From a virus (Duplodnaviria > Heunggongvirae > Uroviricota > Caudoviricetes), in IMG/VR virus record IMGVR_UViG_646311924_000007, positions 32,001 to 96,000 of that record: a stretch of DNA of 64,000 bases. One strand, given 5' to 3'. Below are positions 42,698-63,206 of the stretch, in pieces. Under the pieces are notes generated by a model, which saw only the letters and a list, made by a program, of their open reading frames with translations, was not told the DNA's origin and searched no databases. The first letter of the stretch is position 1. Each line of letters begins with the position of its first letter. The translations under genes were made by a program, and so were the position numbers.

Positions 42698-42952
42698 AGA
42701 TTGCTTTAGTTCTTCGCTCTGGTGGTGACTATAACGCTTCCGATGTGCAGTGGCTGGTTAATCAACTGCCAAAAGGCTATGAAATTATTTGCCTGACAGA
42801 CCTGAAGCGTTTACATGTACCTGGCGTCAAAGTTGTCCCATTGATCAACCAGTGGCAAAAGTGCCGTGGCTGGTGGGCGAAAATCGAGTTGTTCCGACTG
42901 AACCGCCCCGGAAATCCTGGAGACTAAACTCCCTGAGAAAGAGGTAAACAGG

Positions 42953-43279
42953 ATGACTAAAAATACTCGTTTTTCCCCCGAAGTCCGTCAGCGGGCGATT
43001 CGTATGGTTCTGGAAAGTCAGGATGAATATGACTCACAGTGGGCGGCAATTTGTTCCATTGCCCCAAAGATTGGCTGTACGCCGGAGACTCTGCGTGTCT
43101 GGGTTCGCCAGCATGAGCGGGATACCGGGGGCGGTGATGGTGGGCTCACCAGCGCTGAACGTCAGCGTCTGAAAGAGCTGGAACGTGAAAATCGTGAACT
43201 GCGCCGCAGTAACGATATCCTTCGCCAGGCTTCCGCTTATTTTGCGAAGGCGGAGTTCGACCGCCTCTGGAAAAAATGA
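42953..43279 (+). CDS. IS3-family transposase OrfA
   Basis: 108 aa [19 protein letters not shown]..., HTH and leucine zipper; matches IS629/IS1203 OrfA as recalled. Confidence 0.85.
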
Positions 43280-44166
43280 TGCCACTGCTGGATAAGCTGC
43301 GTGAGCAGTACGGGGTCGGACCGGTATGCAGCGAACTGCATATTGCCCCGTCAACGTATTACCATTGTCAGCAACAGCGACATCATCCGGATAAACGCAG
43401 TGCCCGTGCGCAGCACGACGACTGGCTGAAGAGAGAGATACAGCGCGTATACGATGAAAATCATCAGGTGTACGGTGTGCGTAAAGTCTGGCGTCAGTTG
43501 TTACGGGAAGGAATCAGGGTGGCCAGATGTACAGTGGCACGTCTCATGGCGGTTATGGGACTTGCCGGTGTTCTCCGGGGTAAAAAGGTCCGTACGACCA
43601 TCAGCCGGAAAGCCGTTGCCGCAGGCGACCGCGTAAACCGTCAGTTCGTGGCAGAACGACCTGACCAGCTGTGGGTGGCTGATTTTACTTACGTCAGCAC
43701 ATGGCAGGGCTTCGTCTATGTGGCGTTTATCATTGATGTGTTTGCCGGATACATCGTGGGGTGGCGGGTCTCATCGTCTATGGAAACGACATTCGTGCTG
43801 GATGCGCTGGAGCAGGCGTTGTGGGCCCGTCGTCCGTCTGGCACCATCCATCACAGCGATAAAGGCTCTCAGTATGTGTCACTGGCCTATACGGAGCGAC
43901 TAAAAGAAGCCGGATTACTGGCATCAACAGGGAGTACAGGCGACTCGTATGACAACGCGATGGCTGAGAGCATCAATGGTCTTTACAAAGCGGAGGTAAT
44001 ACACCGTAAGAGCTGGAAAAACCGTGCAGAAGTGGAACTGGCCACACTAACGTGGGTGGACTGGTATAACAATCGACGATTGCTGGGAAGGCTGGGCCAT
44101 ACTCCTCCGGCAGAAGCAGAAAAAGCTTATTATGCTTCCATCGGAAACGATGATCTGGCAGCCTGA
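43276..44166 (+). CDS. IS3-family transposase OrfB (DDE)
   Basis: 296 aa with DDE core; overlaps orfA in -1 frame at GGAAAAAATG. Confidence 0.85.
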
Positions 44167-44709
44167 GTTCACAGATAAAACACTCTCCAGGAAACCCGGG
44201 GCGGTTCAGACCGGATATAACCGATGATCTGTTCTATCTGGATTTGGACACGGTTATTGCCGGTGATATACGCCCAATCCTTGAGAATCCACCAACCTGC
44301 TTCACCATGCTTAGGGATTTTTACCATCCACAATATCGTGGTAGCGGTGCCCTGTGGATACCAAATAGTGTAAAAGCACATATCTGGAGTTCATTCTGGC
44401 AAGATCCGGAAGGTTGGATTGCTCGTTGTGTCACTACTGAGTGCTGGGGTGATCAGGGGTTCTTACGGAAGGTTATGGGCGATGATACACCAGCATTTCA
44501 GGATCTGTATCCAGGATGGTTTGTAAGTTACAAGGCCGATGTTGTGGAACCTGGTTCAAAATATGCGAGCGCGCGTTACTCCAGGGGGAATGGGGCATTA
44601 CCAAAGGACTGCCGAATAATCTTTTTCCACGGCAAACCGCGGCCTCGCGAAGTGTCAGAGGATTGGCTTCCCCTCATTAGCTCGTTTTTTGAGCGAGAAT
44701 CAGAATAAT

Positions 44710-44726
44710 ATTGCTCTAATAATTCC
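44710..44726 (+). promoter_or_regulatory. C1 operator-like site (ATTGCTCTAATAATTCC)
   Basis: 13/17 to consensus with perfect first 13 positions; abuts stop of upstream gene. Confidence 0.5.
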
Positions 44727-44734
44727 ATATTTTT

Positions 44735-44764
44735 AAAACGTGATGTACACTCATCACGTTTTTT
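44735..44764. terminator. palindromic hairpin with flanking A/T runs (bidirectional terminator)
   Basis: AAAACGTGATG-TACACTC-ATCACGTTTTTT; stem 44738-44745/44752-44759. Confidence 0.5.
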
Positions 44765-44775
44765 ATTAGAGCAAT
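44759..44775 (-). promoter_or_regulatory. C1 operator-like site in inverted orientation
   Basis: Reverse complement reads ATTGCTCTAATAAAAAA (14/17); forms an inverted operator pair with 44710 around the hairpin. Confidence 0.45.
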
Positions 44776-44789
44776 CTATAAGGTGCACT

Positions 44790-61307: not shown

Positions 61308-61310
61308 ATA

Positions 61311-61327
61311 TTTGCTCTAATAAATTG
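61311..61327 (+). promoter_or_regulatory. C1 operator-like site (TTTGCTCTAATAAATTG)
   Basis: 15/17 to consensus, 4 nt after pacB stop. Confidence 0.55.
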
Positions 61328-61645
61328 TGTTTTTTAACTACCGATGTTACATTGAGCCTGACCTCTTGCGCCTTGAGGCATTTTCGGTTTATGCTTATCA
61401 GGCACCTCATTAAAACGGGTGCCGGGATTGGCCTCCCGCTTAAGTCTAAGGCGATACAGACGCCGCTCGCGTCTTTTTTTGTATCGGCGTACACGCACAC
61501 CTCTACAATGGTGGGCTGTATGGGGCTACCTTCGGGTAGGCTGGTTACCTTGGACGCCAGTAAGGCCAACTCCGTACAGTCCACCGCCAGCAAGATTGGT
61601 CTCTTCTGCGGTGGTTACATACCAACGTCTAAGGAGGCTGCCAAT

Positions 61646-61867
61646 ATGGCTACTATCCCTACCCCAACTCATCCTGAATTTATCTGGCGCTTTTACTCCT
61701 GCCAAAAACGTCACTATCACTTCGTTATTGCACCAACAGAAGATGAGGCTCGCTCTCAGCTTCCTGACGCCCCATGTATTTTCTCTGCCCGTTTTTCCAC
61801 TGATTCACGCAATTCTCTCAGTTACTGGTGCCTCCCTGTTAACGCTTCTGCTCAGGAGGGACTATGA
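61646..61867 (+). CDS. Icd-like small protein, paralog 2
   Basis: 73 aa MATIPTPTHPEFIWRFYSCQKRHYHFVIAPTEDEARSQLPDAPCIF; stop 61865-61867 sits 3 bp before the IS end. Confidence 0.65.
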   Translation: MATIPTPTHPEFIWRFYSCQKRHYHFVIAPTEDEARSQLPDAPCIFSARFSTDSRNSLSYWCLPVNASAQEGL

Positions 61868-61912
61868 GAATGAACCGCCCCGGGTTTCCTGGAGAGTGTT
61901 TTATCTGTGAAC

Positions 61913-62803
61913 TCAGGCTGCCAGATCATCGTTTCCGATGGAAGCATAATAAGCTTTTTCTGCTTCTGCCGGAGGAGTATGGCCCAGCCTTCCCAGCAAT
62001 CGTCGATTGTTATACCAGTCCACCCACGTTAGTGTGGCCAGTTCCACTTCTGCACGGTTTTTCCAGCTCTTACGGTGTATTACCTCCGCTTTGTAAAGAC
62101 CATTGATGCTCTCAGCCATCGCGTTGTCATACGAGTCGCCTGTACTCCCTGTTGATGCCAGTAATCCGGCTTCTTTTAGTCGCTCCGTATAGGCCAGTGA
62201 CACATACTGAGAGCCTTTATCGCTGTGATGGATGGTGCCAGACGGACGACGGGCCCACAACGCCTGCTCCAGCGCATCCAGCACGAATGTCGTTTCCATA
62301 GACGATGAGACCCGCCACCCCACGATGTATCCGGCAAACACATCAATGATAAACGCCACATAGACGAAGCCCTGCCATGTGCTGACGTAAGTAAAATCAG
62401 CCACCCACAGCTGGTCAGGTCGTTCTGCCACGAACTGACGGTTTACGCGGTCGCCTGCGGCAACGGCTTTCCGGCTGATGGTCGTACGGACCTTTTTACC
62501 CCGGAGAACACCGGCAAGTCCCATAACCGCCATGAGACGTGCCACTGTACATCTGGCCACCCTGATTCCTTCCCGTAACAACTGACGCCAGACTTTACGC
62601 ACACCGTACACCTGATGATTTTCATCGTATACGCGCTGTATCTCTCTCTTCAGCCAGTCGTCGTGCTGCGCACGGGCACTGCGTTTATCCGGATGATGTC
62701 GCTGTTGCTGACAATGGTAATACGTTGACGGGGCAATATGCAGTTCGCTGCATACCGGTCCGACCCCGTACTGCTCACGCAGCTTATCCAGCAGTGGCAT
62801 CAT
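61913..62803 (-). CDS. IS3-family transposase OrfB (copy 2)
   Basis: Translation identical to copy 1 OrfB. Confidence 0.85.
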
Positions 62804-63126
62804 TTTTTCCAGAGGCGGTCGAACTCCGCCTTCGCAAAATAAGCGGAAGCCTGGCGAAGGATATCGTTACTGCGGCGCAGTTCACGATTTTCACGTTCCA
62901 GCTCTTTCAGACGCTGACGTTCAGCGCTGGTGAGCCCACCATCACCGCCCCCGGTATCCCGCTCATGCTGGCGAACCCAGACACGCAGAGTCTCCGGCGT
63001 ACAGCCAATCTTTGGGGCAATGGAACAAATTGCCGCCCACTGTGAGTCATATTCATCCTGACTTTCCAGAACCATACGAATCGCCCGCTGACGGACTTCG
63101 GGGGAAAAACGAGTATTTTTAGTCAT
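62800..63126 (-). CDS. IS3-family transposase OrfA (copy 2)
   Basis: Translation identical to copy 1 OrfA. Confidence 0.85.
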
Positions 63127-63206
63127 CCTGTTTACCTCTTTCTCAGGGAGTTTAGTCTCCAGGATTTCCGGGGCGGTTCAGAACGTCATTAGTCACCCGT
63201 GAAGAG

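Follow-up and report, generated by a model that had tools for sequence, protein, structure and literature searches.

Two inverted IS629 copies in a P1-like phage-plasmid very probably derive from independent insertions

Two identical insertion sequences in opposite orientation flank 17.7 kb of a phage-plasmid, an arrangement that raises two questions: did the copies bring the enclosed DNA with them or insert separately, and has that DNA been inverted between them? The window, by which we mean the whole 64,000-nt stretch of DNA that was analysed, contains one inverted repeat pair in a repeat search (42898-44208 and 61871-63181; 1311 nt, 100% complementary, arms 17,662 nt apart). A perfect inverted repeat of 1.3 kb cannot arise by chance. 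Direct reading of the ends gives an element proper of 1310 bp, located at 42899-44208 on the + strand (copy 1) and, inverted, at 61871-63180 on the - strand (copy 2), and running TGAACCGCCCCGG...CCGGGGCGGTTCA; base 1311 of the repeat match is a chance agreement of flanking bases. The initial annotation had placed identical, inverted IS629-like copies at these positions and had proposed a nucleotide comparison of the two. The ends agree with that placement, and the comparison returns 100% identity: the copies match base for base in opposite orientation, and their transposases are therefore identical as well.

The element belongs to IS629/IS1203. It is 100% identical over its full length to many elements annotated "IS3-like element IS1203 family transposase", and has TG...CA ends with imperfect terminal inverted repeats of ~25 bp (IRL, TGAACCGCCCCGGAAATCCTGGAGA; reverse complement of IRR, TGAACCGCCCCGGGTTTCCTGGAGA). 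Each copy carries two intact, overlapping open reading frames: orfA (copy 1, 42953-43279, + strand; copy 2, 62800-63126, - strand), in which profile searches find an HTH_Tnp_1 domain, and orfB (43276-44166, +; 61913-62803, -), with rve and HTH_21 domains; the IS3 transposase model NF033516 is matched at 316 bits. The overlap is spanned by an ALIL pseudoknot (43234-43350, +, 121.5 bits; 62729-62845, -), which predicts programmed -1 frameshifting. Size, identity, ends, overlapping frames and a target duplication in the 3-4 bp range all agree with this assignment, as IS629, of which IS1203 is an isoform, is reported to duplicate 3-4 bp (PMC3271280). At 99% identity or above, the IS is present in 576 plasmid records, and the same 1310-bp sequence recurs at 100% identity in hundreds of plasmids, including unrelated plasmids and hosts. 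Because of this, neither identity nor divergence of the copies can discriminate age, and copy identity was dropped as an age clock.

Each copy is flanked by its own 3-bp duplication, as the initial annotation had proposed: GAC at 42896-42898 and 44209-44211 around copy 1, and GAA at 61868-61870 and 63181-63183 around copy 2. The relative p7_33_80A-2, which is IS-free at these positions, has a single GAC (L001 3397-3399) and a single GAA (L001 21047-21049) at the corresponding empty sites. In-silico excision of the IS together with one copy of the duplication restores, at both sites, ~100 bp that are identical to this relative.

The molecule that received the insertions is a P1-like phage-plasmid (Punavirus-type), as judged from gene order, identity, pacAB with a pac site, phd-doc, lpa and c4/icd/ant immunity. 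Closest to it are P1-like plasmids from Shiga-toxin strains, O111 among them, and these plasmids have IS1203 copies too. The order pmgL...ppp-pmgQ-pmgR-pmgS-pap ... humD-phd-doc-pdcAB-lpa-pacAB is shared with P1 and with p7_33_80A-2, pUTAK-13-1 and pE2855-2, with sequences 97-98% identical to those of P1. Along its full length, the window is collinear with p7_33_80A-2 on a single strand (99.84% identity over 47248-61870), from which it differs in having the two IS629 copies, in lacking IS91 and by a further 1.7 kb. Differences from P1 lie in the accessory block between pap and humD, and between pacB and c1: the latter two are only 24 bp apart in P1, whereas here an extra isrK-c4-icd-ant module, absent from P1, separates them.

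The bracketed segment (44209-61870, 17,662 bp) lies on the same strand as both flanks and is collinear with the IS-free relative. It contains, in order, the 3' part of pmgQ, pmgR/pmgS, pap, a variable accessory block, humD (55685-56074), phd (56147-56368), doc (56368-56748), pdcB (56960-58003), lpa (58092-58544), pacA (58630-59823), pacB (59823-61307) and isrK-c4-icd. The pac packaging site is conserved within pacA (58801-59021, + strand): it shares 98.6% identity with P1 90700-90920, where the pac cleavage sites are annotated, and both arrays of TGATCA/G hexamers are present (58823-58862 and 58953-59009). The initial annotation's list of bracketed genes (humD, phd-doc, lpa, pacAB and an immI-like module) is correct, with the refinement that copy 2 cuts the immI-like module: isrK, c4 and icd fall within the segment, the body of ant beyond its end.

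Since the duplications are matched, both empty sites are restored exactly and the window is collinear with p7_33_80A-2, we conclude with high confidence that two IS629 elements inserted independently into a P1-like phage-plasmid, and that the intervening DNA retains its ancestral orientation. We found no evidence against independent insertion. The events would have been two separate transpositions of IS629 (isoform IS1203, IS3 family), one hitting pmgQ and the other the beginning of a second antirepressor gene, ant-2, each producing its own 3-bp duplication; the opposite orientation of the copies would be happenstance, and the DNA between them ordinary P1-type backbone in its original orientation. 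The data are a single consensus assembly, in which a minority of inverted molecules would not show; the two events may have come in either order, with the chromosome or the first plasmid copy as donor.

A composite transposon, that is, a 20.3-kb unit arriving as two IS629 copies that carry the 17.7 kb, shares with this locus no more than a superficial layout, a segment between two identical IS copies, and can be dismissed, in line with the initial annotation: the outer flanks, GAC and GAA, provide no common duplication, a matched duplication surrounds each IS individually, the halves of pmgQ and of ant flank their respective IS, and the interior is not foreign cargo but native P1-type backbone in order, orientation and position, 99.8% identical to the IS-free relative and collinear with both p7_33_80A-2 and P1. 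Misplacement of one or both copies by the assembler while resolving a multi-copy repeat is hardly more credible: a genome typically carries many identical IS629 copies, with up to 40 or more places in one chromosome, but a misjoin would produce neither the exact 3-bp duplications nor the exact restoration of the empty sites seen at both insertions.

What did two independent insertions do to the genes they entered? Copy 1 interrupts pmgQ after codon 68 (5' fragment, 42694-42898, + strand; 3' fragment, 44212-44708), and the open reading frame in the window runs into the IS and ends at a stop at 42927. Excision of copy 1 yields a 233-aa pmgQ frame that is 98% identical to P1 PmgQ, an identification that also fits the P1 gene order ppp-pmgQ-pmgR-pmgS. 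In the reconstructed sequence, copy 2 interrupts ant-2 after the second codon (after ATGAGAA): the gene starts with the ATG at 61864-61866 on the + strand, resumes at 63184 and continues past the window end (64000). Its product has an ORF6N domain, and the orthologue is annotated "phage antirepressor Ant" (372 aa). Upstream, the icd-like gene (61646-61867, +; NF033153 Icd-like, E 2.6e-13) is intact, its stop codon overlapping the ant-2 start (ATGA). An isrK-like RNA (61402-61479, +, 60.8 bits) and a C4 antisense RNA (61504-61591, +, 75.9 bits), both above the gathering score, complete a second immI-type module, isrK-c4-icd-ant, between pacB and c1.

From the positions of the insertions, the phage-plasmid would lack PmgQ and retain only one of two Ant antirepressors, with null phenotypes predicted for both interrupted genes. 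In ant-2 an in-frame ATG is present at codon 11; a promoter for it was not found, and loss of ant-2 function is the likely outcome. P1 pmgQ, icd and ant1/ant2 are non-essential, and lpa, pacA and pacB essential (PMC10695390); the latter three are intact here. As both interrupted genes are dispensable, the plasmid-prophage has probably kept its essential lytic and maintenance functions.

We considered whether the insertion in ant-2 was selected rather than neutral, on the argument that silencing a surplus antirepressor stabilises the plasmid-prophage and that IS629 excision promoted by IEE, if the host has it, could restore the gene. An IS after the second codon uncouples ant from icd translation, the orthologous ant of pUTAK-13-1 is independently annotated as frameshifted, and in Shiga-toxin strains IEE does promote the excision of IS629 (PMC9943667). 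As proof, two inactivations do not suffice, though: many relatives retain this ant intact, some have up to five icd-ant modules, and IS629 inserts widely and struck pmgQ too. We regard selection for the ant-2 insertion as unlikely.

The second question is that of inversion. With two identical copies in inverted orientation, the 17.7-kb segment is a candidate for RecA-dependent inversion, and inversion by homologous recombination between them, as raised by the initial annotation, is mechanistically possible. The assembly has the parental orientation: its duplications are matched and, compared with p7_33_80A-2, segment and flanks share one strand, so that it displays neither the exchanged duplications nor the inverted synteny of a realised inversion. 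Flank-IS-flank queries of 5,426 complete E. coli genomes and PLSDB returned neither a shared insertion nor an inversion isomer, and viral, genome and metagenome contigs scanned for the exact junctions likewise yielded neither. Apparent matches with 100% coverage (H111-113, H161-166) proved to be multi-piece joins with the IS at a different nearby site; in one of them (H165), a conjugative plasmid with a rearranged remnant of P1, IS629 lies within the ppp of that remnant, and the insertion is not a shared one.

Related plasmids give a similar picture, in a survey of IS629-bounded inversions whose sample is too small for a rate. pUTAK-13-1 and pIDPH8234-2 each contain one inverted IS629 pair, unflipped in both cases, with parental synteny and matched duplications. 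Where IS629 copies in relatives lack duplications, they adjoin deletions, not inversions, as does the single copy in pE2855-2. The plasmid pOkiPb01689_2, picked for its many matching places, lacked IS629, and icd-ant modules account for its extra matches.

Of the alternatives, the one that survives best is that the segment actively flips, so that a substantial fraction of molecules carries the 17.7 kb inverted, with the pac site and the lpa-pacAB block reversed relative to c1/lox, and the assembly represents the majority isomer. A perfect inverted repeat of 1310 bp is an ample RecA substrate, EHEC chromosomes provide documented cases of inversion between repeats (PMC7430833), the pac site lies within the segment, and the inverted form would probably be viable, as the enclosed operons carry their own promoters in P1. 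We nevertheless regard active flipping as unlikely: the assembly shows matched duplications and parental synteny, the public records searched contain these insertions in neither linkage state, the inverted IS629 pairs of pUTAK-13-1 and pIDPH8234-2 are parental with matched duplications, and the rearrangements that adjoin IS629 in relatives are deletions. A stronger form, in which the IS629 pair makes the packaging module invertible at appreciable frequency, so that two isomers coexist and package in opposite directions from pac, appears very improbable. Were it true, the isomers would differ in Cre-dependent cyclisation and in the flanking DNA over-represented in particles, because, following Sternberg's work on P1, only the parental isomer would place lox within the terminal redundancy of the first headful. 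The packaging direction of P1 relative to its genes is not stated in the PhageTerm and BAC/loxP papers. Amplification of short flank/IS-end junctions would be uninformative here, since all four stay the same when recombination takes place within the IS.

IS629 is the dominant IS in Shiga-toxin-producing E. coli, and the pair described here is a real but routine feature of IS629-rich lineages of these bacteria. Beyond annotation its import is small: it would record the loss of PmgQ and of one of two antirepressors to IS629, with the element a recent resident in an IS629-rich lineage. Assemblies and PCR typing of the plasmid should allow for a possible inversion isomer and, if inversion were frequent, the locus would be a small example of a transducing phage-plasmid whose packaging direction is altered by IS-driven structural heterogeneity.

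Compared with known systems, the element differs in nothing from IS629/IS1203 (IS3 family, IS51 group) of E. coli O157, O111, O26 and Shigella, and, relative to the collections searched, only its two insertion sites are new. As in inversions mediated by IS or prophage repeats in E. coli and Shigella (PMC7430833, PMC9943667), long perfect inverted repeats are present on one replicon; unlike IS-bounded inversions, the inversion here is potential only, given matched duplications and parental synteny. The arrangement also resembles the P1-type cin/C-segment in being a phage-plasmid segment between inverted repeats. In that system, a dedicated serine invertase acts at short crossover sites to switch tail-fibre genes, whereas the repeats here are whole transposable elements, no invertase is associated with them, and inversion would create no alternative coding arrangement.

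A repeat search between 40 and 64 kb returned a single long inverted repeat (42898-44208 and 61871-63181; 1311 nt, 100% complementary), whose arms enclose 17,662 nt; chance origin is no concern for a perfect repeat of 1.3 kb. Reading of the ends and comparison of the copies by script defined an element proper of 1310 bp, at 42899-44208 on the + strand (copy 1) and 61871-63180 on the - strand (copy 2), which starts with TGAACCGCCCCGG and ends with CCGGGGCGGTTCA; the 1311th base lies outside it, in the flanks, where it matches by chance. The initial annotation had described two inverted copies with identical transposases and proposed aligning them: the alignment shows that they are 100% identical, base for base. 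Blastn with the IS as query found no other full or partial copy in the whole window. We considered the identity of the copies as a sign of recency or gene conversion and rejected it, because the same sequence also occurs in unrelated replicons and in all five IS629 copies of the P1-like plasmid pIDPH8234-2.

The element is IS629, in its isoform IS1203, which, according to work on O157, was first found in O111:H- (PMC3271280). It matches 'IS3-like element IS1203 family transposase' entries of many plasmids at 100% over the full 1310 bp, and 576 plasmid records match it at ≥99%. Since each copy contains orfA (108 aa; HTH_Tnp_1), orfB (296 aa; rve and HTH_21; NCBIfam IS3 transposase, 316 bits) and the ALIL frameshift pseudoknot spanning the orfA/orfB overlap (Rfam, 121.5 bits), both look, from their sequence, competent for transposition.

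The DNA around the copies is a P1-like phage-plasmid: It is ~98% identical to phage P1 wherever a P1 counterpart exists, and its identity to P1-like plasmids from Shiga-toxin E. coli of bovine and human origin, O111 in many cases, reaches 99%. The best relative, p7_33_80A-2 (NZ_CP074817.1), covers a 23-kb query with the exception of the two IS copies. Over its full 64 kb, the window aligns collinearly with this plasmid on one strand, the only differences being the two IS629 here, an IS91 in p7_33_80A-2 and a 1.7-kb patch. Against the closest relatives there is a gap of ~120 bp near 47.2 kb (47130-47247), and the accessory block between pap and humD (51695-55980) varies among relatives; both departures are mosaic exchange typical of the P1 'early/accessory' region. 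Elsewhere in the window, a sok antitoxin RNA (12128-12302, 114.8 bits) marks a hok/sok type I toxin-antitoxin locus, which corresponds to hokD in p7_33_80A-2 and accompanies phd-doc on the same plasmid. Rfam detects four tRNA genes (29992-30235 and 32184-32256), and the annotation of p7_33_80A-2 lists tRNA-Asn, Tyr, Thr and Ile in the collinear part; P1 has three tRNA genes, one fewer.

From the P1 and p7_33_80A-2 annotations, the segment between the copies (44209-61870) carries, in order, the 3' part of pmgQ, pmgR/pmgS, pap, a variable block of small accessory genes, humD, phd-doc, pdcA/B, lpa, pacA and pacB, followed by an isrK-like RNA, a C4 antisense RNA and an icd-like gene (NCBIfam Icd-like). 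The pac site, inside pacA (58801-59021), is conserved, with both hexamer arrays present.

The two copies are independent insertions, on which four lines of evidence agree. On the + strand, GAC stands on both sides of copy 1 and GAA on both sides of copy 2, so that the outer flanks differ while each IS keeps its own matched duplication; insertion of IS629 is known to duplicate 3-4 bp (PMC3271280). In silico deletion of each IS with one copy of its duplication yields ~100 bp found exactly in p7_33_80A-2, whose target sites hold a single GAC and a single GAA. The segment 47248-61870 is 99.84% identical to IS-free p7_33_80A-2, in native order and orientation, and the halves of each interrupted gene lie on opposite sides of their own IS. 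A composite transposon, which the initial annotation had already discounted from the separate 3-bp duplications, fails both tests, as there is no shared outer duplication and the interior is native backbone; restoration of the empty sites and the split genes bear out the same conclusion.

Copy 1 interrupts pmgQ after codon 68: the open reading frame continues for nine foreign codons within the IS before it stops, and the reconstructed PmgQ (233 aa) is 98% identical to that of P1. Copy 2 lies after ATGAGAA, the first seven bases of a second antirepressor gene (ant-2) between pacB and c1. The ant-2 ATG overlaps the stop codon of icd, which is intact, and the body of the gene (63184 onward) is severed from its start codon, translational coupling to icd, upstream promoter and C4 region. 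It encodes an ORF6N domain, and its p7_33_80A-2 orthologue is annotated 'phage antirepressor Ant'. A genome-wide CRISPRi map of P1 classes pmgQ, icd, ant1 and ant2 as non-essential, and lpa, pacA and pacB, all intact in the window, as essential (PMC10695390). The outcome of both insertions is most likely the loss of two dispensable functions. In the related plasmid pUTAK-13-1, the ant-2 orthologue (24756-25873) carries the annotation of a frameshifted pseudogene, which makes a second case, of independent origin, in which this pacB-proximal antirepressor is inactivated.

The isrK-C4-icd-ant unit at copy 2 is a second immI-type module. In the canonical module, C4 and its a1/b1 targets lie at 8.47-8.68 kb and icd/ant follow downstream. 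As only 24 bp separate pacB and c1 in P1, the pacB-proximal module is an addition, one typical of these P1-like plasmids. Modules of this type, dispersed repeats of ~87-90% identity, occupy varied backbone positions in P1-like plasmids of Shiga-toxin E. coli: two each in the window (8470-8676 and 61402-61867) and p7_33_80A-2, at least three in pIDPH8234-2 (NZ_CP077454.1) and five in pOkiPb01689_2 (NZ_AP042542.1). P1 itself has one. An isrK-type Hfq-binding sRNA match (61402-61479, 60.8 bits) lies directly 5' of the second C4 RNA; the canonical module at 8.5 kb matches the c4-a1b1 target family instead. The two C4 regions are strongly diverged, which suggests different antisense specificities.

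The initial annotation proposed that homologous recombination between the copies could invert the segment. This mechanism is sound in principle, and inversion is to be regarded as only a possibility: a perfect inverted repeat of 1.3 kb offers RecA a good substrate for recombination, EHEC chromosomes provide well-documented cases of inversion between repeats (PMC7430833), and IS elements generally give rise to inversions (PMC9943667). An inversion realised in the assembled molecule is rejected. Had the copies recombined an odd number of times, the inner duplication copies would have changed places and synteny would be reversed; the duplications are matched and the interior is in native synteny, so the molecule is in the parental orientation. 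A crossover within the IS leaves the four short flank/IS-end junctions unchanged and alters only linkage across the complete IS, so detection of isomers requires reads or amplicons spanning >1.3 kb. Neither insertion site, in either linkage state, was found in 5,426 complete E. coli genomes, PLSDB, or viral, genome and metagenome contig collections, so these public data do not bear on inversion of this molecule; the few '100% coverage' matches were rejected as multi-piece joins with the IS located elsewhere.

Related P1-like plasmids with several IS629 copies offer a small natural experiment. In each of two inverted pairs, one in pUTAK-13-1 (2.9 kb apart; AAG and GTT) and one in pIDPH8234-2 (32 kb apart; GTA and AAC), the duplications match and synteny is parental. 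Copies without duplications, two in pIDPH8234-2 (46656-48939 and 84955-86264) and one in pE2855-2 (64770-66079), adjoin backbone deletions of 4-10 kb, not inversions. Within the limits of this small sample, what IS629 has visibly left behind in these plasmids as a family is insertions and adjoining deletions. In pIDPH8234-2, one full copy abuts a truncated one. The deletions remove tail or replication genes (e.g. ban/dbn/gene 5 in pE2855-2), and probably not all of these 'P1-like plasmids' still function as phages.

The P1 operons inside the segment are served by promoters and C1 operators of their own (PpmgR, PpmgT, Pphd, Plpa and LPpac in the P1 annotation), and an inverted isomer should therefore be viable. 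Inversion would restore neither pmgQ nor ant-2, would direct read-through from the pmgL-pmgQ operon antisense to icd/pacB, and would move pac, now ~3 kb to the left of copy 2, to a position ~3 kb to the right of copy 1, with its direction reversed. Packaging is reported, in Sternberg's work and in the P1 genome paper, to run from pac towards c1 and lox, so that the first headful carries lox in its terminal redundancy; given this direction, the inverted isomer would lose that arrangement. That the packaging module flips frequently, reversing packaging direction, is highly improbable.

The observation is thus confirmed, the interpretation as independent insertions supported, and the finding biologically routine: the insertion sites have no precedent in the collections searched, and the kind of event is thoroughly known. 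The element shows every defining feature of IS629/IS1203 tested and is a textbook case, and the replicon is typical of the P1-like phage-plasmids of Shiga-toxin E. coli. With the programmed cin/C-segment inversion of P1, the IS pair shares nothing mechanistically.
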